Origin: a virus
Lineage: Duplodnaviria > Caudoviricetes
Reading direction: 5' to 3' (one strand)
IMG/VR virus record: IMGVR_UViG_2873571580_000001
DNA: 64,000 bases
Part shown: piece by piece, positions 2,824 through 49,651 of the stretch
Layout: each line of letters starts with the position of its first letter
How positions within the stretch are numbered: position 1 is the stretch's first letter
Position numbers and translations under genes: made by a program
Notes under the pieces: model-generated
Database searches by the model: none
What the model was told of the DNA's origin: nothing
What the model saw: only the letters and a program-made list of their open reading frames with translations

Positions 2824-2883
2824 ATAGACCTCCGGCCTACGACGGCGAATCAGGATGGATCGCCTAGAGGATCACAGTACTCC
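2824..2883 (-). promoter_or_regulatory. Structured leader copy B
   Basis: GGAGTACTGT...GGCGATC-N6-GATTCGCC...TAGGCC-GGA-GGTCTA then ATG. Confidence 0.65.
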
Positions 2884-3861: not shown

Positions 3862-4303
3862 CCCCGAATTCAGGCAAGCATGGCCAAACGATAGCCAGCG
3901 GATCCGGCTGCTCGGTGATGTCGCGCAGCGCACGGCGGTAGGCAAGCCAATCGCCTAGTATCTCAGGCGGCGTCGGAGCATCAGGCATGACACGCCAGTC
4001 ACAAGCTGACAGCAGTGCATCGCGCTCGCGCCGCACCTGCGCCCACAACACGTTCAAGTCAGGGACCCACTTGCGCGCGGCAAAATCAAAACTCCAACCC
4101 TCGCCCAGATTGGGCGGGTACCTGACCGGAGTTTGTACTTCCACATTCCAGTAATGCGTCGTTGGAGACACGTTGCCCTCCACCAAAACCCAACTCCGCG
4201 GACTTGACGCTCCGCCAGTAGAGGATGTTGTGCGAGCAATCTTCATTGTGCGATCGGTGTCAGGAACCGCCTCAAGTTCTGCCCAGATGTAGGGTTCATT
4301 CAT
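3845..4303 (-). CDS. Tail fibre assembly chaperone-like protein
   Basis: WAQVRRERDALLSACDWRVMPDAP...YRRALRDIT...IVWP motif. Confidence 0.8.
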   Translation of the reverse strand: MNEPYIWAELEAVPDTDRTMKIARTTSSTGGASSPRSWVLVEGNVSPTTHYWNVEVQTPVRYPPNLGEGWSFDFAARKWVPDLNVLWAQVRRERDALLSACDWRVMPDAPTPPEILGDWLAYRRALRDITEQPDPLAIVWPCLPEFGVKAQG

Positions 4304-8811: not shown

Positions 8812-8827
8812 TGGCAGGCTTGGCACG
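8812..8827 (-). promoter_or_regulatory. Late promoter/operator motif copy 3
   Basis: CGTGCCAAGCCTGCCA-CTGT; ATG 8801 is 6 nt after CACTGT. Confidence 0.75.
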
Positions 8828-12262: not shown

Positions 12263-13021
12263 TTACTCCGTCACGGTGAAAGAGAACTGACCGGCCGGCA
12301 CAATGAACGTGCGGTACTCGGGAGCCTGCTCATCGAATGGCAGTCGTTTGTGAATCTCGAAATCGATCTCGATTACCGCCACTCCTTGCGCGCCAATCGG
12401 ACTGCGACGCATCGCGTGCGCATTGACCACCGCAACGGCCTTGGACTGCGTGAGCGAGGCAAGACGCGCCTCGACTCGCGAGTTGCTGACGATGAAAGCG
12501 ACGCCATTGGAAATCGCAGGCGAGCGCAACCATCGGCGGATATAGATCTGACCATCCGCGTGCACAGATGCGGCGGGCTTGGCCGACACCGGCCCTCGCC
12601 GCAGCAAGCGGGCAGTGGAGGATGCCTTCGCCTTCCCCGATGACACCAACGACGAGCGGACCATCGCATGAGCCGCAACATCAATCTGCGCCTTGGGCTT
12701 GGATCGCACACGACCATAGACAGGCGGCAAGGTGACTTTGATGATGGCCCGGCCGGTGGCTTGCAGCACGCCGTGAATGTCGACCTTTCCCAAGATCCCG
12801 AGAGCCGCGGCGCGTGCCCGCGCTTCGACCGAGAGATTCGCCTCGACCCGCCCAATAGCTCCCGACTGCTTGGCCCGAGCTTTCGCCGCGACGACCGCAT
12901 AGGCCAGCACACGCCCTTGCGCTCGGCCGACGGCATACCCTTTGGCGCTCACGCGAACGCGAACGACAGGATCTGCCACCTGGCCATTGAGCGCAAAGCC
13001 GTTGAGCTGCCCGCGATTCAT
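12263..13021 (-). CDS. Hypothetical virion protein, Ala/Arg-rich
   Basis: Contiguous in the late operon. Confidence 0.6.
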   Translation of the reverse strand: MNRGQLNGFALNGQVADPVVRVRVSAKGYAVGRAQGRVLAYAVVAAKARAKQSGAIGRVEANLSVEARARAAALGILGKVDIHGVLQATGRAIIKVTLPPVYGRVRSKPKAQIDVAAHAMVRSSLVSSGKAKASSTARLLRRGPVSAKPAASVHADGQIYIRRWLRSPAISNGVAFIVSNSRVEARLASLTQSKAVAVVNAHAMRRSPIGAQGVAVIEIDFEIHKRLPFDEQAPEYRTFIVPAGQFSFTVTE

Positions 13022-13034
13022 GTTCGCCCAGCGA

Positions 13035-13451
13035 TTACAGGAGCGCCAGCGTAAAGTCGCCGGTCAACTGCTGGCTGTCCACCACGAACACGTCGTTGAT
13101 CTGCAAGGTGCGCGACGAGGGCAGCGGCTCCGAATACATCAGGGTGGCGGTCGGATCAGCGGCAGAGCCACCCTCCACAATGCCTAGATGTGTCACAGTG
13201 ACCTGAGCACCAATGACAGGCGGGAACTCCGCTCGCACGCTGTTGTAGCTGGCACCGTTGTTCGGCGCGGCGAATGCGCCGGTCGGCACGCGCTGATACC
13301 ACACCGCATTGACTTCCGTGCCAGCAGTGAATGCGTCGGTTGGATCAGAGGTGAACAGCGCGAAGTACGGTGTGCGCAGCGCCGGAAAGGCCTGACCGCG
13401 CAAGGTCGCGTTGATGATGGCGTTGGCCAGCGAAGTAGAAAAGCCGGACAT
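13035..13451 (-). CDS. Phage tail-associated structural protein
   Basis: YFALFTSDPTD...GTEV...YQRV...F..P...N...EFP pattern. Confidence 0.65.
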   Translation of the reverse strand: MSGFSTSLANAIINATLRGQAFPALRTPYFALFTSDPTDAFTAGTEVNAVWYQRVPTGAFAAPNNGASYNSVRAEFPPVIGAQVTVTHLGIVEGGSAADPTATLMYSEPLPSSRTLQINDVFVVDSQQLTGDFTLALL

Positions 13452-13453
13452 GG

Positions 13454-13491
13454 GTGCTCCTCAAGAGGATGAGCACTCCAGCGCCCCGGTT
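13454..13491 (-). promoter_or_regulatory. GGA-hairpin/anti-SD leader element, copy 2
   Basis: AACCGGGGCGCTGGAGTGCTC (13471-13491) identical to 16880-16900; GTGCTC complementary to GAGCAC overlapping the SD. Confidence 0.75.
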
Positions 13492-13516
13492 ACAGCAAAG
13501 GTTTCGACATGAACAA

Positions 13517-13532
13517 TGGCAGGCTTGTTACG
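13517..13532 (-). promoter_or_regulatory. Late promoter/operator motif copy 4
   Basis: CGTAACAAGCCTGCCA-TTGT. Confidence 0.75.
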
Positions 13533-14154
13533 ACGCCGGGGCCATTTCGTTGGATGCTTTCGCCTGCACACCCAACGCGTCGTTGAACAGTTGCAGGTGC
13601 GCGGCAGCGACGTTGGCATTGCCGCCGAACTCCGCATCCTTCGACCATGCTCGGAACAGCATGAAGTGACGCAACGCATCCATCCACTGCGCCGGCACGA
13701 ACGGCGTTCCGGCCTCATCCAGCAGATCGACCACAGCAGGCTCGACCATGGCGCGGATCTTCACGCCTGCGATCACGGGCGGATACACCAGAAACTCGCG
13801 CGGCATCCGCATGTCGTGCATGAAGTGGATGACTTCGCGCGCACCGGCCATGCCACGCCACGCGCCGCTGACAGCATCGAGCACCCAGAGGTTGGTCTTG
13901 GTGATGCGCTTCTGCGCTGTGTTCGCATTGTTGGTGATGTCGATGAGCAGCAGCACGTCGGCGGGCAGCTCGTGGCGCCAGCCATCATCCAGCGTCAGTT
14001 CGCGCTCCTGCGCCAACTGGTCGGGGCGGTGCTCAGCGAACTTGCGCTGGGCAGCGTTGAAATAATCCAGCAGCTCAGACCGCGTCCAGCGCACATGCGT
14101 CGGGTCCTGCAGCTCGCGGGCCGCGTCGTCAATGAGTTGAGGGACCGTCAGCAC
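13528..14154 (-). CDS. Head-tail adaptor-like protein (GTG start coupled to upstream stop)
   Basis: RWTRSELLDYFN...YMLFRAWSKD-like motif FMLFRAWSKD. Confidence 0.7.
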   Translation of the reverse strand: MLTVPQLIDDAARELQDPTHVRWTRSELLDYFNAAQRKFAEHRPDQLAQERELTLDDGWRHELPADVLLLIDITNNANTAQKRITKTNLWVLDAVSGAWRGMAGAREVIHFMHDMRMPREFLVYPPVIAGVKIRAMVEPAVVDLLDEAGTPFVPAQWMDALRHFMLFRAWSKDAEFGGNANVAAAHLQLFNDALGVQAKASNEMAPAS

Positions 14155-14765
14155 CAGCGCACCCTGCCCCTTCCGCCGTTTGGCGTGTTGGATTGCCAAA
14201 CGTCGGTCATCGCGCTGTCAATGGCCTGACGAAAGAACGCCAAGGACACAGCCGCCTGATCCGGTGCGTAGTAGTCGGTCCCACGCGTGTTGAGCAGTTC
14301 GACCTTCGCGCCCTCGCGGATGGCCTCGTGATACAGCGTGCCCACGGAATCGGGGATCGATGTGGCGCGCACGGTGGGCAACACCGATGCATAGACCTGC
14401 AGCGCCCCGACCGATGGCGAGCCCACGGTGAACGTGCGCAGGTCGGGCGACACCAGATAGGTGCAGCCACCTCGCGAATGCTTCCATGGATCCGCCGACA
14501 TGTCGCGAGCGCGGGCGATCTCGATGTCGCGGCCGTTCAAAGATGCCCGCTCGATGCGCAGCAGCTCGGAGCCCTGCGGCAATTCGAACGAGTATTCCTT
14601 GAAGGCCTCGCCCGTGACCTCGGTGGGCTCCAGCCATTCCTGCCAAGCCCGCGTCTCGCGCGTGAAGGTGCGCGCGGCGCGGTTCAGGCACATATGGATG
14701 AGCGGCACCGGCGCATCGGGCGCAGCCAGCACCAGCTCGGGCATCCAGTTATCCCACGAGGCCAT
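14148..14765 (-). CDS. Head-tail adaptor-like protein
   Basis: WMPELVLAAPDAP...RETRAW; position after capsid genes. Confidence 0.65.
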   Translation of the reverse strand: MASWDNWMPELVLAAPDAPVPLIHMCLNRAARTFTRETRAWQEWLEPTEVTGEAFKEYSFELPQGSELLRIERASLNGRDIEIARARDMSADPWKHSRGGCTYLVSPDLRTFTVGSPSVGALQVYASVLPTVRATSIPDSVGTLYHEAIREGAKVELLNTRGTDYYAPDQAAVSLAFFRQAIDSAMTDVWQSNTPNGGRGRVRWC

Positions 14766-14777
14766 GAGCAGATCACC

Positions 14778-15155
14778 TTACGACTGGACGACCGAAGCCT
14801 TCGTGGCCTTGCGCACGCGGCCGGTAGGTGTGGTGCCGCTTTCCACGGGTGCGCCGTCGCCAGAGTCCAGACCAGTATCGCCGTCGCCGTCGTCATCCGT
14901 CGCCTGACGGCCAGCAGACGACAGCCCTGCAGCAACACGGCGCTGCTCGCGAGCGGCGGCCATCTTGTTGAATTTTGCCTCGGCTTCGAATTCCTCGGCA
15001 TCCATGAAGCCCAGCAACTGCAGGTATTCCACATCGCCTTCATCGTCCACCTCGCAGCGCAGCGGCGAGCCCGTGAAGACGTAGGAGTTGCCGGACTTGG
15101 CGGTGACCTTGAGAGTGCCGTCCTTGCGTGCGGGCAGCGAAGAAAAGAGTTCCAT
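14778..15155 (-). CDS. Hypothetical protein, acidic/low-complexity C-terminus
   Basis: GGAG SD before ATG 15155. Confidence 0.65.
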   Translation of the reverse strand: MELFSSLPARKDGTLKVTAKSGNSYVFTGSPLRCEVDDEGDVEYLQLLGFMDAEEFEAEAKFNKMAAAREQRRVAAGLSSAGRQATDDDGDGDTGLDSGDGAPVESGTTPTGRVRKATKASVVQS

Positions 15156-15251
15156 TTTTGTTCTCCAGAGTTTCAAAAAGCCCCCGACGCATGACGCCGG
15201 GGGAAATGCCCTCGCTCAGGGCCGCACACAACTGCGAGCGATGTGTTCGCG

Positions 15252-15701
15252 TCAGGCGTTCGCGTAGACCAGATCCACGGAGAACAGGCCAGCGGCTGTA
15301 CCAGCAGCGGTGATCTTCAGCACCAGCGCGCGGTCTTCATCGGTGGGTACGACCTTGGCGAATGCTGCTGGCACCACTTGGATGTAGCCCCCGGCGACGC
15401 CCGTGGTGTCGTCCGTCACCCATGCACCACCGCCGTCATCGGCTGCGGTGCTGATGTCGCCATTGACATCGGCCAGACCGAGCGAGGCCTTGAAGCCCGC
15501 GCCCAGAGCAGTCGGCACACGGATGTACAGATGCGCGGGCAACGTGCCAGCAGGCAGAACGCCGATAACGCCCTTCGTGCCCACGACGTGATCCGTCACA
15601 GCAATCGACTGGCCAAAGCGGGAGCGGACCAGTTCGGGACCGCCGGGAGTGAGCGGGTTCTGGTGGCCAGCAGCCACCGCACTCGTTTGTTTGAAAGCCA
15701 T
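15252..15701 (-). CDS. Capsid decoration/cement-like protein
   Basis: Small beta-rich Gly/Ala protein directly after the capsid gene; AAGGAG SD. Confidence 0.6.
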   Translation of the reverse strand: MAFKQTSAVAAGHQNPLTPGGPELVRSRFGQSIAVTDHVVGTKGVIGVLPAGTLPAHLYIRVPTALGAGFKASLGLADVNGDISTAADDGGGAWVTDDTTGVAGGYIQVVPAAFAKVVPTDEDRALVLKITAAGTAAGLFSVDLVYANA

Positions 15702-15741
15702 GTTCTGACTCCTTCAATGGAAAGTGGGTTGACCGCGTGGC

Positions 15742-16857
15742 TCAGCGCGAAGCTGCGGCAGTATCGAGCGCGTACAGGCCGTGGTCCTGCGGCACACCGC
15801 CCATCTCGAACACGGACTTCTTCAGACCGAAGATCGAGGATGTGGTGATGATCACTTGGTTGCCGCGATCAGCGGTTTCCTCGTGCCAGCCGTAGCGCAT
15901 ACCCGTGCCCGGCGAACCGAAGGCCATCACGCCCGCCTGCGCGCCCATGAACAAGGCACGCGCGGTTTCCACGTTCTGGCCCGCGCCGTGGGTGTTGTGA
16001 CGAATCACATTGCGGTGCGAGTGCAGCACCACACCGCGATGCATGCCCAGCGCCGACTTGAACAGCGGCGACTTGGCACCCAGCGATGCAGCAGCGGCCT
16101 TCTGCAGATCCATCCACGCGCCCGTGGAAACGTCATTGCGCAGATCGTCTTCCTGCCAGGTGTGCATCACCAGCACGAACACTTCTTCGCCGTCCACCAC
16201 GCAAGGCTGGATCACCGGCACATCGGTGGCACCACCGCCCTGAGTGTCCGCACGGGTCTTGGCATCGCCGATCAGCTTGAGAGTCATCTTGTCGCTGACA
16301 TCGATGTTGGCCGTCGACGTGGCATCGCCGCCGAACATATGTTGATTGGCTGTCGGTGCGGTCAGCGCATTCTTGGCACGGCCTTGATAGCCCAGTGGCA
16401 AGATGAAGTTGGCGTTGATGCCGCGCGAGCCACCGAAGTAGGTGAACGTGAGTTCATCCTGAAAGCGGCCCCACCAGCTTGCTTGCTGCTGCTTGGCGCG
16501 CACACGAAGATCGTGCAGCGTGCGCTTGCGCGACATGCGGCCACCGGTATTCACACCACCGCGCGCTTGGTCGATGTACAGCTCGTCCGTGTAGAACTTC
16601 TGCGCTTCTTCCTTGCCTTCCAGCGTGTCATCGCCTTCGACTGGTGCCATGCGCAGTTCGGCCAGCAGGTCGTAGCTGATCAGGTCACCGGCTTCGGATT
16701 CCAGATCGGTCAGCAGTTGAATGGGAGTTTTCGCGCCTTGGCCGACAGCAGTGAAGCGGCGGCCAAAGTACGAAGCTTGGCTGGCGTCGAGGGCCAGTTC
16801 GCCAGAGAAGCGCTTGACGGCGCGGGGGCTGTTCACGCCCACAACGGTTTTACCCAT
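15742..16857 (-). CDS. Major capsid protein, N4-gp56 family
   Basis: DLESEAGDLISYDL, PVEGDDTLEGKEE, LYIDQARGGV, ARALFMGAQA. Confidence 0.9.
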   Translation of the reverse strand: MGKTVVGVNSPRAVKRFSGELALDASQASYFGRRFTAVGQGAKTPIQLLTDLESEAGDLISYDLLAELRMAPVEGDDTLEGKEEAQKFYTDELYIDQARGGVNTGGRMSRKRTLHDLRVRAKQQQASWWGRFQDELTFTYFGGSRGINANFILPLGYQGRAKNALTAPTANQHMFGGDATSTANIDVSDKMTLKLIGDAKTRADTQGGGATDVPVIQPCVVDGEEVFVLVMHTWQEDDLRNDVSTGAWMDLQKAAAASLGAKSPLFKSALGMHRGVVLHSHRNVIRHNTHGAGQNVETARALFMGAQAGVMAFGSPGTGMRYGWHEETADRGNQVIITTSSIFGLKKSVFEMGGVPQDHGLYALDTAAASR

Positions 16858-16860
16858 GGA

Positions 16861-16900
16861 TTGCTCCTAGTGTGGTAGCGAGCACTCCAGCGCCCCGGTT
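16861..16900 (-). promoter_or_regulatory. GGA-hairpin/anti-SD leader element, copy 1 (capsid 5' UTR)
   Basis: AACCGGGGCGCTGGAGTGCTC at 16880-16900; TGCTC complementary to SD GAGCA. Confidence 0.75.
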
Positions 16901-16929
16901 GAAAAACGAATATCAGTTAGAAAGAGCCT

Positions 16930-17124
16930 TCACGATGGCAGGCTTGGTACGGGCCGCGCCACGGCAGCAACTTTTTTGATTGGTGTGTCAGGCGCTGCAG
17001 ACACCACCATCCGCGCGACCTGCCCTTTCTTGTATTCCATCTGGATGCGCACACCGGCAACCTCCAGCACGTCACCCGTGCGCAGCTCGATGAAGTTGCG
17101 GCGAACGGGTGGCGTGTTTGACAT
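16930..17124 (-). CDS. 64-aa CsrA/RsmA-like RNA-binding protein (divergent)
   Basis: FIELRTGDVLEVAGVRIQMEYKKGQVARMVVSAAPDTPI aligns by eye with CsrA [39 protein letters not shown]. Confidence 0.6.
   Translation of the reverse strand: MSNTPPVRRNFIELRTGDVLEVAGVRIQMEYKKGQVARMVVSAAPDTPIKKVAAVARPVPSLPS
16936..16951 (-). promoter_or_regulatory. Late promoter/operator motif copy 5 (capsid promoter)
   Basis: CGTACCAAGCCTGCCA-TCGT inside the 3' end of the CsrA-like gene. Confidence 0.75.
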
Positions 17125-17138
17125 CGTGGCTCCTGGCA

Positions 17139-18095
17139 TCAGGCAGACATCTGGTACTGCAGACGCTTTTCGGGCGAGAGCTTGGCCAGTTCGCGCTCGT
17201 ACTCGGGGCCGATCAACTTGTCGAGCTCCGCGAACTCGTCACCAATGGGATCGGTGTCACCGACACCACCCGGCACATCGGCGAGAGTCGTCACGACCTC
17301 GCTGGCATCCACCTTGCGCTTGCCGCTGTCCGCAGGCTTCTTGCTCGTCGGAATGCTGTGCAGTGCCACGACGCGCTTGTGCGCTTCCTCGAGGAACCAG
17401 CGTGAAGGCTTGTCGGCATTGGCGGGCACAGCGGCCAGTGCCTTGACGAACGTGTCCAGATCAGCCTGCTTTTCCAGATCCTTGCGGTAATCCACAATGC
17501 CCAGCTCCGGCTTGCTCGCGGCGTCGCCGATGAAGGAGTTGATCGTGTTCGACCATTCGTTCTGCTGGGCCTGCGCCTGCATCTCGGTCGCGATCTCGGC
17601 ACGCGTCTTCTGACGCGAGAGTTCGTCACGCTGGTCTTCCAGCTCGGTCAGCTTCGCGTCGAACTCGTCGGCATCGATCTCGCCTTCGTTGAGCTTCTTG
17701 CGCAGGTCGGTGCGCGCGGAACGGTTGGCCTTGATCTGCTCGTCGTAGTCGGCTGGCAGTTCGGACTTGTAGGCAGATTGCGCAGCCGCAGGCGCGGGAG
17801 CAGGCGCTGCGGTGTCTGCCTTCTCGGCGTCGCCCGGCTCGTCGTCCTTTTCCGCGTCAACGTCAGACGCCTTGCCATCGTCCTTGTCGACTTCGGTCTT
17901 CTCGGACTTCGCGCCCTTTTCGATTTCCTTGTCGGAGTCGTCGTCATCATCCTGCTCATCTTCATCGATCTTGCCGCGACCGATCTCAGCCAACGCTGCG
18001 GCATTGTCTTCGTCCGCATCGTAGTCATCGTCGGCCATGGCCTCGATCTCTTCAGGGCTCAGCAGACGCTCGCGGTCTTCGTCGGAAATGCTCAT
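17139..18095 (-). CDS. Scaffold protein
   Basis: Highly acidic N-terminus, coiled-coil, position between portal and capsid. Confidence 0.8.
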   Translation of the reverse strand: MSISDEDRERLLSPEEIEAMADDDYDADEDNAAALAEIGRGKIDEDEQDDDDDSDKEIEKGAKSEKTEVDKDDGKASDVDAEKDDEPGDAEKADTAAPAPAPAAAQSAYKSELPADYDEQIKANRSARTDLRKKLNEGEIDADEFDAKLTELEDQRDELSRQKTRAEIATEMQAQAQQNEWSNTINSFIGDAASKPELGIVDYRKDLEKQADLDTFVKALAAVPANADKPSRWFLEEAHKRVVALHSIPTSKKPADSGKRKVDASEVVTTLADVPGGVGDTDPIGDEFAELDKLIGPEYERELAKLSPEKRLQYQMSA

Positions 18096-18123
18096 GGTTG
18101 TGTGCTCCTATTGATAACGTGAT

Positions 18124-18543
18124 TCAGGCGGTGGCTTGCCCAGGGCGCGGCGTTCCAGCCAGATCGGCGGCAGCGTCTGCCTCGGTCAGCACGGGGCGTG
18201 CAAGCTGGTCGCGCAAGCGAAAGCCCAGCAGCGGCCAGATCTGGTTGATGGCGTTTTCACGGGCAACAGCGCGGCCGATCTCGGCGTTGAAGTTTTCTGT
18301 GCTGACGCAAGCGCTCTCGCCGGTAACAGTGAAGCCGTTGCGCAGCACTAGCACACAGAAAGTGAGCAGGTTGAGCGCCGTCCCGGCTCGCACGCTGTTC
18401 AGACGGTGACCGCTGGCTCCAATCACGCCATCGGCGGCGGTGAAATAGAACTCGCTGGTGATCTCGTCCTCGATATCAGCAGGCGTCACGCGCGGTGCGC
18501 TGCTGGCCTTGGATTGGATTTCTTGCTCAATGGAATCGGACAT
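18124..18543 (-). CDS. N4 Gp49/Sf6 gp66 family protein
   Basis: LTFCVLVLRNGFTVTGESACVS.ENFNAEIG...A..NA.NQIWPLLGF. Confidence 0.85.
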   Translation of the reverse strand: MSDSIEQEIQSKASSAPRVTPADIEDEITSEFYFTAADGVIGASGHRLNSVRAGTALNLLTFCVLVLRNGFTVTGESACVSTENFNAEIGRAVARENAINQIWPLLGFRLRDQLARPVLTEADAAADLAGTPRPGQATA

Positions 18544-18551
18544 GTGTGCAC

Positions 18552-19094
18552 CTATTGGTTTGATTGTGGAGCTTGCACAGTGGCAGGCTTGGTACGGCTC
18601 AGCGCGTCGAAGGAACGCTCGCAGGTGAGTCCTGCGGCATGGGCGGCATCAGCGAACTCCGCCAGTTCGCCCGCTCGCGCGTCAGCCCTGCTGAACAGGT
18701 CGGCGAACAGATCGAGGGCGTCGCCGGTTGTCGGGCCTGCGGTGGGAGCGCTGGAATGCTGGGCGGTTCGGGCGGCGGTGCGATAACGGGCAACGTCGGC
18801 GAGCAGGCGGTCGCGCTCAGTGCGAGCACCAGCAGCATCGTGACGCGCAAGGTCAATGCGGGCTTGGCCATTGGCGGCCTCCTTATCGATTGCGGAACGC
18901 CACGCGGTTTCAGTGGCGCGGAAAGCGGTAACGGCCGCGGCGGTCTTCTCGCGGATCTCGCTCAGCACAACGGCGTAGTGCGCATGCACGGCTTTCTCGG
19001 CGGCGTGCACGCGAGAGAGATGCCACCAGGTGCCAAGGCCAATGAGTGCGGCCAGCACGACAGCGGTGATGATGAGTTTGGCTTGCGTGAACAT
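18552..19094 (-). CDS. Rz: Rz-like inner-membrane spanin
   Basis: N-terminal TM, Ala-rich coiled coil, AGLTCERSFD; embedded lipoprotein ORF. Confidence 0.75.
   Translation of the reverse strand: MFTQAKLIITAVVLAALIGLGTWWHLSRVHAAEKAVHAHYAVVLSEIREKTAAAVTAFRATETAWRSAIDKEAANGQARIDLARHDAAGARTERDRLLADVARYRTAARTAQHSSAPTAGPTTGDALDLFADLFSRADARAGELAEFADAAHAAGLTCERSFDALSRTKPATVQAPQSNQ
18581..18596 (-). promoter_or_regulatory. Late promoter/operator motif copy 6
   Basis: CGTACCAAGCCTGCCA-CTGT inside Rz 3' end, upstream of gp49-scaffold-CsrA-like genes. Confidence 0.75.
18599..18871 (-). CDS. Rz1: Rz1-like outer-membrane spanin, embedded in Rz
   Basis: Signal LLVLALSATA-C, Pro-rich mature part, alternate frame of Rz; exact start uncertain. 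Confidence 0.7.
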   Translation of the reverse strand: MAKPALTLRVTMLLVLALSATACSPTLPVIAPPPEPPSIPALPPQARQPATPSICSPTCSAGLTRERANWRSSLMPPMPQDSPASVPSTR

Positions 19095-20009: not shown

Positions 20010-20719
20010 TGGTCACCCCACGCAGGCAGCACAGACCAAGTCACTGGGGCGCGCAGATCGTGGCCCGGGATCGGATACCACATCTGCGGAGCCAGCGGCC
20101 CGCTGAAAACGTTGTCCACCTCGAAGCCCACGCGGGTCTTGAGGCTGAGCTTGCCGACCAGCTTGCGAGTGACCTTCACAAGCCACGCGCCGCCCGAGCG
20201 CACCACCGTGACAGAGAGCTTGCCTTCGCTGCCCTGCCACTTCTGGAAGCCGCTCGCGCCGCCCACCAGAATGCCGCGACGCCACGCGAGGTATTCACCA
20301 CCGTTGCGGCGATACCAAGCCTTGCGCGCCTTTTCGCTGCGGGGATGTGCCCCCTTGCACCAATAGCACGCGGCCACGGCCTGCGCATATTCTTCGCTGG
20401 CCGGATCAGGGTTCAGCCAGAATGCCTCCACTGGTCGACCACCTTGGGGGGTATCCACCCATGGCCCGTTGTCACCATTCGCTGTGATGTTCAGCATCGG
20501 CGCGATGTCGCAATCTGCCCAGTCGGGCCGCGCTTCGATCAGCCGGTTGTGCTCCCAGCTCATCGCCTTGGCAATCTTGCCCGCACGCAGCAGACGGATC
20601 TTCAGCTTGGCCAGCAGCAGCCCGTCCGACTGCTCATCGGCAAAGTCGATGCAGTCGATGACCTCGGCATGCAAGGTAGCGGGCACGCCCGCGATGGTCA
20701 GCATTCGGGAAAGGTTCAT
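20006..20719 (-). CDS. Hypothetical phage protein
   Basis: Overlap-coupled between portal and holin-like gene. Confidence 0.7.
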   Translation of the reverse strand: MNLSRMLTIAGVPATLHAEVIDCIDFADEQSDGLLLAKLKIRLLRAGKIAKAMSWEHNRLIEARPDWADCDIAPMLNITANGDNGPWVDTPQGGRPVEAFWLNPDPASEEYAQAVAACYWCKGAHPRSEKARKAWYRRNGGEYLAWRRGILVGGASGFQKWQGSEGKLSVTVVRSGGAWLVKVTRKLVGKLSLKTRVGFEVDNVFSGPLAPQMWYPIPGHDLRAPVTWSVLPAWGDQ

Positions 20720-23070
20720 TCAGCTTCTCCGGGTTTCTGTTCTGGGGATTGGTCATTGCCGAACTGGGCTAGTGCTTGGTTCATGGCTGCCAAGCGCTCG
20801 CGGCTCTGGGCTTGGATCTCTGCCACGCGCTCGCGGCTGTCGGCATCGATGCGCGCGACCTGCAGGCGCACATCGGCGTCGCTCTTCACGGCCAGCGTCT
20901 TGTTCGCAAGATCCGCCTGCGCTTTGGAAAGCTGACGCTGCACGCGGTCCAACTCCATGTCGGCATCGCGGCGCACCGTAGCGGCAGCGCCTTGCATCTG
21001 CTGCGCGCGGGCCTGATCGCCACCGGCTGCAACGCTTTCCGCTTCAGCTTCGAGCTTCGCCGCCTTGGCATTGATCTCGCGCACCTTCGCCACCTGTTCG
21101 GCCAACGCCTGCTTGGCGCTCTCCTGCTGCATCTGCAGCGCCTCGGCCTGTGCCTGCATTTGCTGCTGCATCTGCTGCTGCTCCTCGGGTGTGAGCGGCT
21201 TGTTCGGATCGCGCTCGCCAGTGAGCTTGCGCAGCTCGTCGGCGATCAGATCGTTGTTGGGCAGGTCCGAGAAATCCATGGCCAGCGTCATGATGCGCAG
21301 CGCCACGTCGGCCGGCAGTCGGCCGGCGAGCTGGTTCATGGCCTCGAACATCACCTGGCGCAGCGTGCCCGAGTAGTCCTGCTCGCTCACCACGAAGTCA
21401 GCCAGTGAAGCGGTGATGTCGTTGATGTAGCGCACCGAGCCGTCGGGCTGCACCTCGGGCTGATTGATCTTCACCCACTCCAGTGCGCCCTTGTGGCCTG
21501 ACAGGCGGATCACCTTTTCTTCCGTGTACCACTGCTCGATGAGGCTGAGCAGCTTCTCGCCCTGCGACTGGACCGCGAAGCGTAGGTTGTCGAATGGCTG
21601 TGTGGTGACAACGGAGCCCTGCATCTGGCGCGCCTTGATGGCTTCGCCCGAACTAGCATTGGTCTGGCGGCCAAGGTTCTCGTTGCTGATACCGGCGTTC
21701 TTCTGGATCGCCTGGGCGTCTAGCGTCATCATCTGCACTTGCCCGGCCGCCATCTCGCTGTCGCGATGCACCTCGAACTTCTTGCCCGCCTTGTAGAGCA
21801 CCGTCCCATCGGGTTGGTTGACCTCCTCGCGCGCCGCGTTGATGTCCTTGACAGACCCCTCTTCCGCAAAAATCTGGTTCGTGGACAGCAGAAACAGCGC
21901 CTTGGATGCACGCTTGTTCAGATCCTTCTGGAGATCACGCACGCGGCGGATCACGCCATAGGGCATGCGATCGCGCCCACGGCGGTAGCACCAGACCGGC
22001 GTCAGGCTGAAGCTGTTGTGCCGCATCGGCATGGGGCCGAGTGCAAGCAGGTGCGACTCGGTCATGACAGCGACGTGCATGCGCATCACCAAGCGATCCA
22101 CAATGGCCCCGCCGACCTGCCCCACTGCCTGCATCAAAGCGCTGTCCCATGATTCGAGGAACGCACCCTTGAACGGACCTTCCGTCACCACCTTGACCGA
22201 CACCGGCATGCGGAACTGACACTCGATCAGGCGGATGCGCTTGCGCGGCTCGCTGTCGACGTTGCCGCGCCCGCCAGTTACGTAGCTGGTGCTGGAGTGC
22301 GTGGAGCTGGAATAGCCTTGGTAGTAGAACTCGTCCTCGGCCCACTGCTGAGACGAATACTCGTTGTCATGCTGGATCGAGCGGCGCAGAACATCGGCGC
22401 GGCCGGGGTACATGGCGAGTGCCACGTCCTCATCCACCCAACGCGTGCGGAACAGGTAGCGCGCATCCGCGAGATCCATCTCCATCGCGAAGGAATCCCA
22501 GATGACGTTGCGCCAGTCCTCGTACTTGTCGTAGATGATGTCCTTGGTCGGGTCATTGCGCACGCCGGAATCGACCCAGCCAACGCCCACCTTAACCGCA
22601 TCATCGAACGCGCGCGAGCGATTGAACTGCGATCGGTTCACGTCCGTAACGAACTTCATGACCTTCGTTTTCACGTCGGCCATGTCCACATCGTCCTCGG
22701 TGCGCGGCAGCACGCGCCAATCCACGCGAGCCCGTCGCTCGGTGCCAATCAACCAATCCACCATGGGCGCGACCTCGTTGAACACCAGTGGCGTCTGGCC
22801 GCGCTCCTCCAGCAGCGCCGCGTCTGCCGGATCCCATTGCTCGTTGTCGTAGAAGTCCGCATCCACCGACATGTCCAGCCGGTTCTCCGCCTGAATCTCG
22901 CGCTCGCGGTAGTACCAGGACAGGCACTGCTTGAGCACGTTGCGCGACTTCTCGCTGTCCAGCGGATGCGGTGGCGTCACGTCGACAACCTCGAAGCTCT
23001 CGGCTTCCTCGTTGATGACGTTCTCGCCCGGTGCGACGTTGCGACGGATGCGCGGCTCAAGCAGGGACAT
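20716..23070 (-). CDS. Portal protein, P22-like
   Basis: FYDNEQW, LVFNEVAP, DLQKDLNKRASK, long C-terminal Gln/Ala coiled coil. Confidence 0.9.
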   Translation of the reverse strand: MSLLEPRIRRNVAPGENVINEEAESFEVVDVTPPHPLDSEKSRNVLKQCLSWYYREREIQAENRLDMSVDADFYDNEQWDPADAALLEERGQTPLVFNEVAPMVDWLIGTERRARVDWRVLPRTEDDVDMADVKTKVMKFVTDVNRSQFNRSRAFDDAVKVGVGWVDSGVRNDPTKDIIYDKYEDWRNVIWDSFAMEMDLADARYLFRTRWVDEDVALAMYPGRADVLRRSIQHDNEYSSQQWAEDEFYYQGYSSSTHSSTSYVTGGRGNVDSEPRKRIRLIECQFRMPVSVKVVTEGPFKGAFLESWDSALMQAVGQVGGAIVDRLVMRMHVAVMTESHLLALGPMPMRHNSFSLTPVWCYRRGRDRMPYGVIRRVRDLQKDLNKRASKALFLLSTNQIFAEEGSVKDINAAREEVNQPDGTVLYKAGKKFEVHRDSEMAAGQVQMMTLDAQAIQKNAGISNENLGRQTNASSGEAIKARQMQGSVVTTQPFDNLRFAVQSQGEKLLSLIEQWYTEEKVIRLSGHKGALEWVKINQPEVQPDGSVRYINDITASLADFVVSEQDYSGTLRQVMFEAMNQLAGRLPADVALRIMTLAMDFSDLPNNDLIADELRKLTGERDPNKPLTPEEQQQMQQQMQAQAEALQMQQESAKQALAEQVAKVREINAKAAKLEAEAESVAAGGDQARAQQMQGAAATVRRDADMELDRVQRQLSKAQADLANKTLAVKSDADVRLQVARIDADSRERVAEIQAQSRERLAAMNQALAQFGNDQSPEQKPGEAE

Positions 23071-23490: not shown

Positions 23491-23506
23491 TGGCAGGCTT
23501 GGTACG
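23491..23506 (-). promoter_or_regulatory. Late promoter/operator motif copy 7
   Basis: CGTACCAAGCCTGCCA-CTGT. Confidence 0.75.
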
Positions 23507-23904: not shown

Positions 23905-26013
23905 ATGAAGATTTGGACACATCTTTTCCGAACAGCGCTTGTTGCTATGCTCATGAGTGCGAATGTAGCGAACGCGCAGAACATTCTTGTTCTGACCACA
24001 GGAGGTCAAAACTCCCGACCAGCTCCGGAGCTCGAAAACAAATATATGCCAGCGATGGTGCAGGAGTTTTCCAGTCCGCTGACATTCGGCGACTTTACGA
24101 CTGGTGGCAATCCCTGCAGCGGGACAAATAGCACCACTGTTGGCTCGTTGACGAAGTCCGTCACCTGCAATCAGACCGAATTGGTGAATGGCACCGTCAT
24201 GGCTTCATCCACCTTTGACCCGGGCTATGACCTTCTGGTAGTGGCTTCTGCTTACACCACAATAGACGCAGCAGATTGGGCTGTGATCGAGGATGCAGTT
24301 CAAACGCGCAAGGTGCGCGGTGCGGTGTTTTTCATCGACACAATCAACGGGGCCAACACGACGGCCATAGAAGGTTTGCTTTCACGAGTTATGGGAGCCC
24401 CCGTTACTCAAGGCTCTCAGTTTCCTGGTGGCAACTTTTACTTTCCGCTCAACACTGCCGCCGCCGCACAGAGTAGCTTCACCGGCTTACCCACCTTGGA
24501 ACTCAACAGTGGGTTTTATGCATATAACGGGGTGCCATCACGTTACGCTCTGTATACGGGCGTGAATGAATTAGCTACAGCTACTCCGGGGAATGCGACT
24601 GACCCAACGTCAGCCACAGGCATTTTCGTACCCCAGAGTGATTCTTATGCGGGTGCTGGCGCCTGCGTTTTCGGCGTTACGGACATCGGCTGGGGGGTCA
24701 GTGGAACTGGGCACAACATTGGCAAGCTCGGCAATGCTTTTCTGACAGAATTCAACAAGTCTGCTCCTGATGGAATTTGTGCCACTCCCTTGGCAGCACC
24801 TCCCACGCTCGCCATTCAAAAGACAACCACTGCCAACACTGCCGCCTTTCCATCCAACGGTGTCGCGGTTCCCTATACTGTTGAAGTCAGCAACGTAAGT
24901 ACCACTGCGCTGGCACTCAACGTTGGAGTAAGCGACCCGCAGCCTACAGGCATAACACTAGGTCAGTGGGCATGTACTCAAATTACGCCTGCCGCACCTG
25001 CGAATTTGTGCCCCACTGGATTGCCAACTGGCGATCTCGTTACCACAATCGCGTCGCTACCCGCTGGTGCGAAGCTTCAGTTCACCACCAGTGGGACCGT
25101 GACGGACAATACCCAATCACTGACCAACGTGGCTACGCTTCAGTTGCCTCCCGGGGCTATCTGCGATGGAGGCGGCAACCCTTGCACATCACAGGTGTCT
25201 TTTGCCTTGCCGCCATCGATCAGTGTGATCTGCGAACCAAGCAGTATTCTTGATTCACCTTCGCAGACTGCAGTTTGCAGTATTTCCTCCAGCATCTCAG
25301 CACCCGCTGGCGGTTTGACCGTCGCATTGATTCCACCAGCCTCCCCGCACGGACGCTATTCCACCGACTGCGGCTCGACTATCACGATACTCGAAGGAAG
25401 TCTTAAGGCTACCTGCAGCATTACCGCGACGCCCAATGACACGCCTGGAGATGGAGATGTGAATGTGACGCTGGCATTGGCTACTCGACCTGTTGGTGCC
25501 AACTACCAAACGGGATTGCCATCCCAAGCCACAGTATTGGTCAAAGATGACGATGTCGCGGCCGCCACGCCGGAAGCAACACTGTCCTGCACACCGACGA
25601 CACTGGTCGACGCCGAAAATCAGGTATCCATTTGTACCGTCAGCCTAAGCGCTCCCGCCCCAGCAGGAGGACTTGGTATCATTATCGTTCCACCAGCGAC
25701 CAATGGTCGCTACAGCACGACCTGTGCATCGCCCCTCGCCGTTCCAGCAGGCGCTAGCACTGCTACTTGCGCTATCACAGCCACGCCCAATACAGTTGCT
25801 GGCGATGGTAGCGCCTCAGCCCTTGTCCAACTGATACCCGGAACCGGCTATGGAGTGGGTAATCAAGCGCAGGCGACGGTCAATATCAACGATGATGACC
25901 AAACAATGACTGTTGCACCTGTTCCCACTTTGGGTCAGTGGGCCATGATGATCCTGTCGATTCTTGTCGCGTCGATTGGCGTTGGATTGTCACGCAGGCA
26001 GTTGCGCAAATAG
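23905..26013 (+). CDS. Moron: secreted surface protein with DUF11-like domain, two Cys-containing Ig-like repeats and IPTL-CTERM sorting signal
   Basis: Signal peptide; C-terminus VAPVPTLGQWAMMILSILVASIGVGLSRRQLRK; lower GC than phage genes. Confidence 0.85.
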   Translation: MKIWTHLFRTALVAMLMSANVANAQNILVLTTGGQNSRPAPELENKYMPAMVQEFSSPLTFGDFTTGGNPCSGTNSTTVGSLTKSVTCNQTELVNGTVMASSTFDPGYDLLVVASAYTTIDAADWAVIEDAVQTRKVRGAVFFIDTINGANTTAIEGLLSRVMGAPVTQGSQFPGGNFYFPLNTAAAAQSSFTGLPTLELNSGFYAYNGVPSRYALYTGVNELATATPGNATDPTSATGIFVPQSDSYAGAGACVFGVTDIGWGVSGTGHNIGKLGNAFLTEFNKSAPDGICATPLAAPPTLAIQKTTTANTAAFPSNGVAVPYTVEVSNVSTTALALNVGVSDPQPTGITLGQWACTQITPAAPANLCPTGLPTGDLVTTIASLPAGAKLQFTTSGTVTDNTQSLTNVATLQLPPGAICDGGGNPCTSQVSFALPPSISVICEPSSILDSPSQTAVCSISSSISAPAGGLTVALIPPASPHGRYSTDCGSTITILEGSLKATCSITATPNDTPGDGDVNVTLALATRPVGANYQTGLPSQATVLVKDDDVAAATPEATLSCTPTTLVDAENQVSICTVSLSAPAPAGGLGIIIVPPATNGRYSTTCASPLAVPAGASTATCAITATPNTVAGDGSASALVQLIPGTGYGVGNQAQATVNINDDDQTMTVAPVPTLGQWAMMILSILVASIGVGLSRRQLRK

Positions 26014-28287: not shown

Positions 28288-28303
28288 TGACAGGCTTGGT
28301 ACG
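28288..28303 (-). promoter_or_regulatory. Late promoter/operator motif copy 8
   Basis: CGTACCAAGCCTGTCA-TGTT. Confidence 0.75.
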
Positions 28304-28684: not shown

Positions 28685-30802
28685 ATGATGCCAAACCGAT
28701 TTTCGATCTGCCTGCTTGGTGCCTTGATTCCGTTGGGCGCAAATGCTGCTGCCGGAGCCCCACTGCCTCGCTGCTCAGTTGACTCCCAGTCGTACTATCT
28801 GATGCGCTATACAGAAGTGGGAACTTCTGCCACCAATCTACGCACTCCGACTACCAGTTTAGATTTGGCAGTTGTGCCAGCCAGCGGTTCCGTCACTCTT
28901 ACAAACATCTGGAATGCACAAGCTGCACCAACTCCCTCTCAGTGGGACGGCTCCCCGACTGCGGGCGCGACCGTCGCTGGGGGCATGGGTAAAGACGGCT
29001 ACATCTATGCGATGAGAGCTGTGGGAGCATGGGAGCCGGGCTGGACCAACCCAAACTGGCAAACGCACACGCGTCGCTACGAGATGCTTCGGTTTGGCCG
29101 CAGCGGCGTGGACAATCTCGGTATCGTGAGCGGTTTGGGGCCTTACCGGAATGATGCAAACGTCACGGTGAGTGGAGCGGTGGATCTTCGACTTGGGCCC
29201 AACATGAACGCGGCAGACATCGATCCGGTAAGCGGAATCATGTATGTGGCGTCTTTCCAGTCCAGCGGATTGTTGGACAAAATCTTCAAGATCGATGTCA
29301 CACAGACACCCCCGCAGTACGTAGGGACCCTTGCGCTTACCCAAAGCATTCCAGGAGCTCAATCAGGAGACTTTGCCATAGATGCAGCAGGTCAGTATGC
29401 CTACGGAGTGGCCAAGGCTGCAGGAACCTTCGGCAACTCCACAAGCTATCGCATCAATTTGACTACAGGCGTAGTCGAATCATTGGCAACTGGTCTTGGA
29501 ATTATCCCTTACGGTGCTGCGGCACGATTGCCAAACAATTCCGCCAAGATGGCTTTCTATGGCCTAAGTACGCAAATCATGACTCTGCCCACAGGGACTC
29601 TGGGCACCAGTCAATCCACTCCAACCTCAACCAGCTCAGATGGAGCCGCGTGTCTACCGAAGTTCAAGACTACCTTGCAATGCGTTCCACTTACACTGGT
29701 CGATGCCGACAACAACGTCGCCACCTGCACCATCGCTCTCGATCAGCCAGCGCCAATTGGTGGTATTGCCATCGCGCTGACACCTCCAGTAACTGATACA
29801 CGGTACACGACAACCTGCGCATCATCTGTCACGATCCCTGCCAACACGACCACCGCTCAATGCACCATAGCCGCTACAGCTAACACCACCCCAGGGGATG
29901 GAGATGTAACGGCAACAGTATCACTGACCACACCCGCGGCGACTGACGACTACGAGCTGAGCACGCCATCGAGTGCCAGTATCCTGATCAAGAACGACGA
30001 CCTACCTACCGTCAACCTGACATGTACGCCCAATACGTTGACGGACTCCCCCGGTCAGGTATCAACATGCACTGTCACCTCAAATGTGCCCGCGTCCGTT
30101 GGAGGAATGACAATCGCCTTGGTGCCTCCTGTTGCAAATCCTCGCTACATTAGTACCTGTGGTGCGAACATCTCCTTGGCGGAAGGCGAAAGCAGCAATA
30201 CCTGCACCATCACGGCGAATCCAAATACCACTCCGGGTGACGGCGACGTTGCCTCATCGTTGGCATTAGCAATACCACAACCAGGTTCAGGCTACCAGAT
30301 AGGCACACCGTCCCAAGCCACAGTATTCGTCAGAGATGACGATGTCGCGGCCGCCACGCCGGAAGCAACACTGTCCTGCACACCGACGACACTGGTCGAC
30401 GCCGAAAATCAGGTATCCATTTGTACCGTCAGCCTGAGCACTCCCGCTCCAGCAGGAGGACTTGGTATCAATATCATTCCACCAGCGACCAATGGTCGCT
30501 ACAGCACAACTTGTGCATCGCCCCTCTCCGTTTCAGCAAGCGCTAGCACTGCTACTTGCGCTATCGCAGCCACGCCCAATACAGTTGCTGGCGATGGTAG
30601 CGCCTCAGCCCTTGTCCAACTGATACCCGGAACCGGCTATGGAGTGGGTAATCAAGCGCAGGCGACGGTCAATATCAACGATGATGACCAAACAATGACT
30701 GTTGCACCTGTTCCCACTTTGGGTCAGTGGGCCATGATGATCCTGTCGATTCTTGTCGCGTCGATTGGCGTTGGATTGTCACGCAGGCAGTTGCGCAAAT
30801 AG
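28685..30802 (+). CDS. Moron: secreted surface protein with beta-propeller-like N-domain, three Cys-containing Ig-like repeats and IPTL-CTERM
   Basis: Signal peptide; NAADIDP...GDFAIDAAG blades; same C-terminus as 23905-26013. Confidence 0.85.
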   Translation: MMPNRFSICLLGALIPLGANAAAGAPLPRCSVDSQSYYLMRYTEVGTSATNLRTPTTSLDLAVVPASGSVTLTNIWNAQAAPTPSQWDGSPTAGATVAGGMGKDGYIYAMRAVGAWEPGWTNPNWQTHTRRYEMLRFGRSGVDNLGIVSGLGPYRNDANVTVSGAVDLRLGPNMNAADIDPVSGIMYVASFQSSGLLDKIFKIDVTQTPPQYVGTLALTQSIPGAQSGDFAIDAAGQYAYGVAKAAGTFGNSTSYRINLTTGVVESLATGLGIIPYGAAARLPNNSAKMAFYGLSTQIMTLPTGTLGTSQSTPTSTSSDGAACLPKFKTTLQCVPLTLVDADNNVATCTIALDQPAPIGGIAIALTPPVTDTRYTTTCASSVTIPANTTTAQCTIAATANTTPGDGDVTATVSLTTPAATDDYELSTPSSASILIKNDDLPTVNLTCTPNTLTDSPGQVSTCTVTSNVPASVGGMTIALVPPVANPRYISTCGANISLAEGESSNTCTITANPNTTPGDGDVASSLALAIPQPGSGYQIGTPSQATVFVRDDDVAAATPEATLSCTPTTLVDAENQVSICTVSLSTPAPAGGLGINIIPPATNGRYSTTCASPLSVSASASTATCAIAATPNTVAGDGSASALVQLIPGTGYGVGNQAQATVNINDDDQTMTVAPVPTLGQWAMMILSILVASIGVGLSRRQLRK

Positions 30803-46254: not shown

Positions 46255-46357
46255 GGCGTAACCTTTCAGATGGAAATCGACGCCATGACCTACGCCAGAA
46301 AGGCGCGCTCAAGGCCCTGCGTTGCAAGAACTGAGTGTGGGAGGGGCGGCAGCGTGT

Positions 46358-47116
46358 TCAGAATTGCCACGTTAGCCCTAAAAGGGGGCCCGCCATGTGG
46401 ATGTCAATCAAGGTGCCGCTGCGGCGGTAATCGAGTGACAGATAGCGATAGCCAGCCGAGACGTAAAACGAGTCCTGCAGCTTGTAATTCAACGTTCCAA
46501 TTACCTGCCAGGTGGACTTGGAATCCACGCCAAAACCGCCAACATCGCCATACACAAGGGCAGACCACCGGGGCGTCAACGCTTTGTTGAAACGCACGGC
46601 AAGGACGGGGTCTACTATGGAAAGACTGGACTTCGCGTTGATCCCAATCGCTGGAGCACGAGCTGAGACCTTAATGTCCCAAGCTCTCATGCCGGCCAAC
46701 AGGTCCACCGTTGAACCGGGTTCATCAAACGCTCGGTAGCCTCCCGCCAACGTCAGTGAGGTATTGCGTAGTTTGCCGGTAGCGCCAACGCCTGGAGCTA
46801 CTTCTCCGTCTGCGCCAATGCTGGAGTAGGTTAGGTCGCCGAAAAGAATAAGGCGACCACGTTGCGCGAGTCCCGACACAAATGCGGCCGCGTTGAGATC
46901 GTGCAAAACATCGCGAAACGAATTGCTCATCTCAACCGATGGCGTTGCCGCCATGGGGCGTATTGTGCCCCCCATTCCGGCCATCCAAATGTATGGGGTG
47001 ACCTGAAAGGCCCAATGGTCGAATCCCTCCTCCGCAGCGGCAGGCATAGAAAGCAGCATGACGCCTGACATCGCAATCATGCCGTTTAAAGACTTTGATA
47101 CCCAGAGCATTGCCAT
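46358..47116 (-). CDS. Outer-membrane beta-barrel protein
   Basis: Signal peptide; WAFQVTPYIW; alternating strands; terminal LGLTWQF. Confidence 0.75.
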   Translation of the reverse strand: MAMLWVSKSLNGMIAMSGVMLLSMPAAAEEGFDHWAFQVTPYIWMAGMGGTIRPMAATPSVEMSNSFRDVLHDLNAAAFVSGLAQRGRLILFGDLTYSSIGADGEVAPGVGATGKLRNTSLTLAGGYRAFDEPGSTVDLLAGMRAWDIKVSARAPAIGINAKSSLSIVDPVLAVRFNKALTPRWSALVYGDVGGFGVDSKSTWQVIGTLNYKLQDSFYVSAGYRYLSLDYRRSGTLIDIHMAGPLLGLTWQF

Positions 47117-49025: not shown

Positions 49026-49040
49026 CGTTGGCCTTTCGGA

Positions 49041-49065
49041 AAAAAGAAAACCCGCCGAAGCGGGT
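49041..49065 (-). terminator. Rho-independent terminator
   Basis: ACCCGC-TTCG-GCGGGT plus T tract on minus strand. Confidence 0.7.
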
Positions 49066-49083
49066 CTGTTGGTGTTGTCAGGC

Positions 49084-49644: not shown

Positions 49645-49651
49645 GTGATCC

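Follow-up and report, generated by a model that had tools for sequence, protein, structure and literature searches.

Genes of the csrA type have been catalogued in phages (PMC7366521, PMC8450108), and the copy in phage JC1 was called a moron (PMC9144972). Host targets for phage CsrA are favoured in this literature (PMC7366521, PMC8450108, PMC9144972), and a single CsrA peptide was found in a JC1 virion preparation (PMC9144972). A 2025 functional-genomics paper described the role of phage csrA in the phage life cycle as previously untested and found a growth defect; small plaques were obtained on CRISPRi-ART knock-down of a phage csrA homologue (PMC11879866). PTXU04, a phage of the CRISPRi-ART paper, was not among the tblastn matches of two CsrA-like queries against the phage collection. 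Our literature search retrieved no paper tying a csrA-like gene to a capsid leader. The gene family is already known, usually under the label 'moron'; the leader and the pairing of gene and leader appear to be undescribed.

At an E-value of at most 1e-3, the phage family PHROG 8397 comprises 932 clusters at 50% identity. Bcep22 gp54 (annotated as 'CsrA-like regulator') and the 'carbon storage regulator' of GP4 are encoded between scaffold-like and capsid genes, and the CsrA-like genes of PEp14, Parlo, Itty13, Skulduggery and LASTA occupy the same place. Members were found after a scaffold-like gene or, in the F116 type, after an adaptor gene. The family sits in the head-morphogenesis block and not among accessory genes.

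The locus studied here lies in the window, the whole 64,000-nucleotide stretch of DNA that was analysed. The late region of a prophage spans ~1-38 kb of the window, with its genes on the minus strand (Table 1). Its order runs from the terminase through the portal (20716-23070), lysis genes, an N4 gp49-like gene and the scaffold-like gene to a 64-aa ORF, followed by the major capsid gene, a 149-aa gene, a terminator, virion proteins and an SU10-type adaptor. The 138-aa gp80-like gene comes after this adaptor and before the fibres. The scaffold-like gene has the same position in Bcep22, PEp14, Parlo, Itty13 and LASTA. Two ~700-aa genes on the plus strand, antisense to the late operon, flank the terminase genes and contain a 300-nt direct repeat with 88% identity (25469-25768 and 30258-30557). 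Positions 46000-64000 hold a second, unrelated siphovirus-type prophage with an 1833-aa tape measure protein, an HK97-type capsid gene and a head protease.

Table 1. Features of the prophage late region, with positions in the window.
Feature	Position	Strand	Remarks
138-aa gene, GP4 gp80 'fiber I' family	13035-13451	-	Pfam PF23140, E 7e-30
Second leader	13452-13532	-	16-mer 13517-13532, 21-mer 13471-13491, H1 13471-13486; covariance model R1, E 4e-3
Ribosome-binding site of second leader	SD 13457-13462; lock strand GAGCAC 13454-13459	-	before gp80-like gene
Intrinsic terminator	15181-15203	-	strong; ends the unit of capsid and 149-aa genes; layout as Bcep22 gp55-gp56-terminator
Major capsid gene, Phage_capsid_3 / N4 gp56 type	15742-16857	-	Pfam Phage_capsid_3, E 1e-56
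Capsid mRNA leader	16858-16935	-	covariance model R1 match at 16843-16901, E 2e-10
SD AGGAG (16864-16868) and 3' strand of H2 lock, GAGCAAUCC (16858-16866)	16858-16868	-	pairs with 16880-16888
Hairpin H1	16880-16895	-	5' arm 16890-16895; loop UGGA 16886-16889; 3' arm GUGCUC 16880-16885
21-mer AACCGGGGCGCTGGAGTGCTC	16880-16900; 13471-13491	-	two exact copies
CsrA-like ORF, 64 aa	16930-17124	-	last gene of portal / scaffold-like / CsrA-like block
Acidic scaffold-like gene, 318 aa	17139-18095	-	PHROG 8246, Bcep22 gp52 type
16-mer CGTACCAAGCCTGCCA	889-904, 8812-8827, 13517-13532, 16936-16951, 18581-18596, 23491-23506, 28288-28303	-	7 copies at no more than 1 mismatch

The CsrA-like protein

The 64-aa ORF is a real gene. 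It begins with an ATG preceded by AGGAG, 14 nt past the stop codon of the 318-aa scaffold-like gene, and a gap of 72 nt separates it from the downstream capsid gene. An earlier note on this DNA had pointed to the residue pattern of CsrA in an ORF upstream of the capsid gene; the pattern is present, and a profile alignment places the ORF onto CsrA strands b1-b5. In a PHROG profile search the ORF matched phrog_8397, 'CsrA-like regulator' (E 4.4e-11, 43.6 bits), its residues 12-55 aligning with profile positions 5-48 of 64. Judged from this profile match, the ORF is a member of PHROG 8397, a large phage family. The Pfam CsrA model PF02599 (curated cut-off 27 bits) gave no match to the window ORF at E<=1; the sole Pfam result for the ORF alone, LolA_3, was rejected as a chance match. 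A phmmer search with the ORF against the PDB returned nothing relevant. Because tblastn with the ORF found no match in 50,697 phage records, the capsid gene and profiles were used to find relatives.

The ORF has 28 close homologues. Close homologues and the corresponding ORFs of related loci were brought together in an alignment (A2), and a profile was made of its 14 members. The A2 profile matched solved CsrA, RsmA and RsmE structures across strands b1-b5 (E 3e-5 to 5e-3), and 7 of the 14 members individually matched Pfam CsrA, the best at E 8e-8. An AlphaFold2 model computed with A2 had a mean pLDDT of 86.8, rising to ~95 over residues 11-50. When this model was compared with the PDB by Foldseek, the best 14 matches were all CsrA/RsmA/RsmE chains, with an rmsd of 0.8-1.6 A over 42-46 residues and a TM-score, normalised to the query, of 0.58-0.67; with so short a protein, the Foldseek E-values were weak. 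Strands b1 and b5 have no pairing partner in the monomer model, which is what a swapped dimer would predict. DSSP assigned no C-terminal alpha-helix to the model, where residues 50-64 have a pLDDT of ~68-74. The CsrA assignment of the earlier note is therefore upheld by PHROG 8397, by the family profile and by the AlphaFold2/Foldseek comparison, and not by Pfam PF02599 on the window ORF.

The RNA-binding residues compared were L4, R7, V42 and R44 (E. coli numbering). R15, the equivalent of R7 in E. coli CsrA, is nearly invariant among relatives. R44, which is critical in CsrA, aligns with K52 here, and relatives have R, K, V or L at this position. The hydrophobic positions of b1 and b5 are retained. 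On the strength of the predicted fold, the ORF encodes a divergent CsrA-fold protein with a putative role in RNA binding. The host genome (6.2 Mb, 100% complete) contains no Pfam CsrA match at E<=1.

Two details of the ORF concern its 3' end. The C-terminal tail overlaps a DNA motif, the 16-mer copy at 16936-16951, which coincides with the last codons and sets a C-terminal 'VPSLP' that is invariant in close homologues. Loci L005 and L007 read the same DNA in another frame (RTKPA), so the conservation is at the nucleotide level and not at the peptide level. In a prophage of Acidovorax sp. SDU_ACID1 (L009:5727-6032), the CsrA-like frame has no stop codon before the capsid gene, which may reflect a frameshift or a sequencing error.

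The capsid leader and its two pairings

The identity over 21 nt that had been claimed between the leaders of the capsid gene and of gene 13035-13451 is exact. The 21-mer heads these two genes, capsid and gp80-like fibre, and has no further copy in the whole 6.2-Mb genome; no 21-mer match was expected from 100 shuffles, even at 3 mismatches. The identity between the two leaders ends at exactly 21 nt. The hairpin H1 (GGGCGC/UGGA/GUGCUC) alone folds at -7.9 kcal/mol. The alternative pairing lies within the minimum-energy fold of both leaders, as GGAGUGCUC:GAGCAAUCC in the capsid leader (-17.2 kcal/mol) and as GUGCUC:GAGCAC in the gp80-like leader (-22.7 kcal/mol), and in folding we thus recovered both structures that had been read from the sequence, a hairpin with GGA in its loop and a pairing that covers the SD. 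A search of 13000-19000 with Rfam gave no match on the leader at E<=1; the sole match there was sub-threshold and lay on the terminator (15173-15241).

In the alternative pairing, H2, the loop and 3' arm of H1 base-pair with the segment that begins at the GAG of the SD and reaches the AUG; frequently the 5' arm also pairs with codons 2-3, which lengthens the helix. H1 and H2 are mutually exclusive, and both are conserved. The minimum-energy fold of every leader examined was H2 (-15 to -31 kcal/mol), with SD and AUG both buried, and the SD was hardly ever free in the predicted ensemble. When H1 was enforced, the best fold was 2-18 kcal/mol worse than the H2 lock. Since H2 is the predicted minimum-energy fold everywhere, the start site would be locked by default, and since H2 beats H1 by this amount at equilibrium, activation would have to be kinetic.

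Conservation of the two helices was examined in a comparison that took in ~120 related loci and phages overall. The leader set consisted of 17 genome loci and 80 IMG/VR loci with a capsid identity of 61-87%, which yielded 58 unique leaders. A core, GCGC-loop-GUGC, was present no more than 100 nt from the capsid start in 94 of 95 related loci; in the form GCGC-NNRA-GUGC it constitutes the conserved hairpin H1. The RNAalifold consensus over 57 leaders was H1, with six pairs, including a conserved G.U, and a loop of 4-5 nt. Within this set of 57-58 leaders the arms of H1 are invariant, so that covariation is absent. Compensatory changes in the outer H1 pairs appear in distant phages, from A-U/G-C here to U.G or C-G with C-G in PEp14, Parlo, Itty13, LASTA and Skulduggery, and to C-G/G-C in F116 and Dartukuta.

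MAFFT and RNAalifold lost the register of the SD-to-AUG strand, and the outer part of H2 was therefore scored by anchored counting and duplex energies. The inner six H2 pairs had 92% of cells paired, compared with 28-65% when the partner was slid, and an anchored ungapped count gave a mean of 8.5 of 10 positions paired. At the variable outer positions cognate partners formed 2.70 pairs and swapped partners 2.42 (15 of 5000 permutations were as high), and the H2 duplex energy was -10.5 kcal/mol for cognate against -9.2 for swapped and -4.0 for shuffled partners (0 of 2000 permutations were as low); as the sequences are related, these permutation tests overstate independence. Individual compensations in H2 include GGA:UCC, GAA:UUC (L048-51), AGAG:CUCU (L012) and GGAAG:UUUCC (L053, L063, L087), and in PBC5 and POI1126 a compensation, AUGA:UCAU, extends to the start codon. 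The covariance model R1, built from alignment A4, recovered the capsid leaders, the Bcep22 leader, both gp80 leaders and the Dartukuta element. Consistent with the two-state element proposed in the earlier note, both helices are conserved with compensatory changes among related leaders and phages. By this comparative evidence the leader is a conserved two-state RNA and not a chance repeat.

The loop of H1 is less uniform. It is UGGA or AGGA in 83 of 95 related loci; 11 of 94 related leaders have a loop with no GGA, as do PEp14, Parlo, Itty13, LASTA, PBC5, Atu_ph08, POI1126 and Dartukuta (AAGA, AUGA, UGAA). UGGA itself is confined to the window's clade, with AGGA, AGGAN, AAGA, AUGA or UGAA elsewhere, and the proteins are similar across lineages despite the GGA-less loops. 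The idea of an altered specificity for C-UGGA-G was therefore abandoned. Loop bases and the H2 partners near the AUG change together, which indicates that loop identity is at least partly set by RNA-RNA pairing; such pairing alone could explain the conservation of the loop bases. A low-GC lineage (L095, L097 and L099, leaders at ~3941-4015) has a core with no GGA loop (GCGCAYGUGCUC) and keeps the pairing with the start region.

The second leader requires a narrower statement. Only the window's clade has the 21-mer copy in front of the gp80-like gene. In the gp80 leaders of relatives H1 is kept exactly and the ribosome-binding site is locked by other pairings; the coexistence of H1 and a lock in these leaders means that H1 is not always the opposite of locking. 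The earlier claim of one element on both the capsid gene and a second gene thus stands for the window's clade and does not extend to its relatives.

Both leaders begin just past a copy of the 16-mer CGTACCAAGCCTGCCA. All copies lie on the coding strand of the late region, 10-78 nt before start codons, and the motif occurs nowhere else in the genome at one mismatch or fewer. Complementarity to GCCUGC is frequent immediately 3' of the 16-mer. At the corresponding places, relatives show versions particular to their lineage (AAGGATGG, AAGCATGG, AAGCACAG, AATGATGG), and the version in L011, CCAAGGAUGG, resembles the SELEX site. In Bcep22, GP4, PEp14 and PBC5 a sigma70-like promoter takes the place of the 16-mer, and a near-consensus sigma70-type promoter precedes the leader in PBC5, Atu_ph08 and POI1126. 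We put at even the chance that the 16-mer is a phage-specific promoter, the copy at 16936-16951 being that of the capsid unit; or else it may be a processing site. A sigma54, sigma70 or ECF promoter was rejected, as the motif fits none of these and has no conserved upstream -35, with 0 sigma70-like sites found. An internal hairpin or CsrA target within the 16-mer was likewise rejected: the hairpin is not conserved, its GGA is replaced in other lineages, and phages of the Bcep22 type have a plain promoter there.

Elsewhere in the prophage, two paralogous microprotein genes (~2243-2262 and ~2828-2847, minus strand) have their SD, GGAGG, in a hairpin of 6-7 bp whose triloop is GGA (AUAGACC-GGA-GGUCUAU). 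A change from A-U to G.U preserves a pair of this stem, and the AUG follows the stem directly. These hairpins are further candidate sites of the CsrA type in the prophage.

Occurrence of gene and leader in related phages

Loci were counted as informative when the sequence available upstream of the capsid gene was 690 nt or longer, which left 83 related loci. Gene and leader were both present in 80 of them, at a median gap of 80 nt, and both were absent from one (L052). The remaining 2 had the core and no detectable gene. One of these, L078, has only 693 nt of upstream sequence. In the other, L095, no CsrA-like gene was detectable in 49 kb (contig 81% complete), and the leader core is GGA-less; its sibling L097 has the same leader, with a CsrA-like gene 2.3 kb upstream.

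In PBC5, Atu_ph08 and POI1126 the capsid gene is not preceded by a CsrA-like gene, yet the leader is present. In these three phages a small CsrA-like ORF directly follows the portal and scaffold-like genes; its distance from the leader is 1.3 kb in POI1126 but 27 kb in Atu_ph08 and ~30 kb in PBC5. Neither gene nor leader was found in the Stx-type phage PA28, in Vibrio D96a or in Paracoccus KLEP18-1, and in PA28 and D96a the capsid gene begins 23-24 nt after the scaffold-like gene. The earlier note had tied the leader to the ORF, and this tie proved firm: the two occur together also where they are unlinked (PBC5, Atu_ph08), the phages with a leader and no adjacent ORF (PBC5, Atu_ph08, POI1126) carry the gene elsewhere, and the CsrA-less relatives (PA28, D96a, KLEP18-1, L052) have no such leader.

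When family members were picked by protein alone, the element was found just downstream in 4 of 4. In F116 and Dartukuta the CsrA-like gene follows a structural gene, and the element lies at the 3' end of the CsrA-like gene, before the next gene, with its upstream strand inside the CsrA-like ORF. In L127, a metagenomic locus of the F116/Dartukuta layout, the preceding structural gene matches SU10_adaptor. The F116 capsid gene has no leader. A relationship between the gp80-like protein of the window and the gene after the CsrA-like ORF in phages of the Dartukuta/F116 type was considered and rejected, there being no significant similarity and no Pfam match. F116 (NC_006552.1 16448-16600, 33363-33569) and Dartukuta (MW749009.1 10721-10876, 25862-26056) each carry two CsrA-type genes. 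One of each pair is a canonical CsrA that scores above the Pfam cut-off, and the other is of the divergent structural-module type and is followed by the element. The arrangement points to two phage CsrA lineages that differ in function.

A proposed switch, its rivals and known systems

We propose that the CsrA-like protein acts on the two-state capsid leader and switches translation on, and we regard this proposal as a whole as fairly probable. In the H2 state, the core loop and 3' arm would pair with the SD-AUG stretch and bury the start site. In the H1 state, the core would fold on itself into a GC-rich hairpin with a loop of 4-5 nt (UGGA here) and leave the start site free. The CsrA-like protein would be made from the upstream portal/scaffold message and would capture nascent H1, keeping the 3' arm and loop, as a 'toehold', off the SD-AUG strand. 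The lock would thereby be kept from closing, and capsid translation would come on once portal and scaffold are made. The protein probably binds the leader RNA, and, given binding, we think activation slightly more probable than repression. Its likely target is the leader of the capsid mRNA, together with that of the gp80-like fibre gene in the window's clade.

The argument for an activator starts from the lock. Capsid protein is needed in the largest amounts, and its start is locked by a stable, selected helix; something must therefore open this lock. The CsrA ligand that Dubey et al. (2005) obtained by SELEX is reportedly an RGGA tetraloop on a short stem. H1 has such a ligand-like shape, and the sole conserved partner of the leader is a protein of RNA-binding fold made just before it, which is why capture of H1 is favoured. 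Near-consensus sigma70 promoters stand at the leaders of the Bcep22 type, and timing may for this reason need post-transcriptional control.

The alternative we take most seriously, though we consider it unlikely, is that the protein is a classical CsrA-type repressor or feedback governor, whose dimer faces would occupy the H1 loop and the GGA of the SD until it is titrated, for example by an assembly intermediate, in a parallel to B. subtilis CsrA on the flagellin mRNA. The architecture is canonical for such a repressor: a hairpin site lies 20-35 nt upstream of the SD, and GGA is always part of that SD. Furthermore, in several phages the SD lies in an internal loop of the closed fold, a possible display of its GGA, and the one CsrA peptide in the JC1 virion preparation hints at contact with a capsid part (PMC9144972). 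However, H2 already locks the start with no protein, so that a repressor looks redundant, and the GGA of the loop is not conserved.

A related and distinctly improbable reading, drawn by analogy, would make protein and leader an assembly-coupled governor, in which the protein is held by scaffold, portal or procapsids as CsrA is by FliW. Translation of capsid and fibre would then track the supply of assembly partners. Such a governor would be the phage equivalent of the flagellin checkpoint and might represent an ancient role of the CsrA fold; the one JC1 peptide associated with virions would fit it.

Somewhat less probable than repression is an autonomous lock, in which the leader closes the ribosome-binding site in cis and is opened by RNase III, by co-transcriptional folding kinetics or, in some phages, by translating ribosomes, and the CsrA-like protein acts on other host or phage RNAs, as the 'moron' view holds. 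The long imperfect helices of 15-20 bp resemble phage RNase III sites, H2 pairing accounts for the identity of the loop, and L095 is locked with no detectable gene. In F116 and Dartukuta, where the upstream strand is inside the CsrA-like ORF, translation across it would open the lock. Other SD hairpins with GGA in a loop are present in the prophage, and the literature favours host targets (PMC7366521, PMC8450108, PMC9144972). An autonomous lock nevertheless leaves unexplained the genome-wide co-occurrence of gene and leader at 27-30 kb and their joint loss, as well as the mutual complementarity of the H1 arms through sequence change. A role of the 21-mer at the DNA level is highly improbable, whether as operator or as promoter element of a late transcription factor (imperfect palindrome GAGCGC-N4-GTGCTC). 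The 21-mer hardly varies in the clade, and its place is between a promoter-like motif and a gene, but the conserved G.U pair of the helix would be a mismatch in DNA, the pairing is with the SD-AUG stretch and shows wobble-only and compensatory changes, and the element is always on the coding strand.

With the proposed switch, phage CsrA homologues, long catalogued as host-reprogramming morons, now have a concrete candidate target. If the proposal is true, head assembly in these phages would have a dedicated post-transcriptional timer or ratio control, with a reach across widespread T=9 podophages and prophages of alpha-, beta- and gamma-proteobacteria, and the pair would represent a compact protein-RNA switch with natural specificity variants.

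The closest known relatives are the members of PHROG 8397 (Bcep22 gp54, GP4, PEp14, Parlo, LASTA, F116 p47), which the window ORF resembles in its direct family match and in its place after the scaffold-like gene. It differs in forming a divergent branch in prophages of Comamonadaceae, with an ELRTGD/KKG signature; in the papers found, the family is presented as a moron or host manipulator with no proposed target. With CsrA, RsmA and RsmE (PF02599) the protein shares its size, the chain fold of b1-b5 and the conserved positions G9, R7 and 'KG..xR', and the leader shares a candidate target with an (A/U)GGA tetraloop upstream of the SD. Unlike them, the window protein is below Pfam detection, has K in place of R44, has no predicted C-terminal helix and has its gene in the head module of a phage whose host lacks CsrA, and its candidate target has a loop GGA that is not conserved among relatives and a built-in competing lock helix.

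In the B. subtilis CsrA-FliW-flagellin (hag) system, too, a dedicated CsrA governs how the main subunit of a self-assembling structure is translated, with one hairpin site plus the SD; the system differs in that no FliW-like partner was identified here and the phage leader is self-locking. Leaders processed by RNase III, as in lambda N and the early mRNAs of T7, also have a long imperfect helix over the start region; those leaders have no conserved alternative hairpin and no gene for a partner protein. In the regulation of mom by Com in phage Mu and in the activation of E. coli ymdA by CsrA, a small protein binds upstream of a structure that sequesters the SD and frees the start. Com is a zinc-finger protein and not CsrA-like, and the targets are unrelated; we infer activation in the phage leader, and the mechanism favoured here is that of Com/mom and ymdA.
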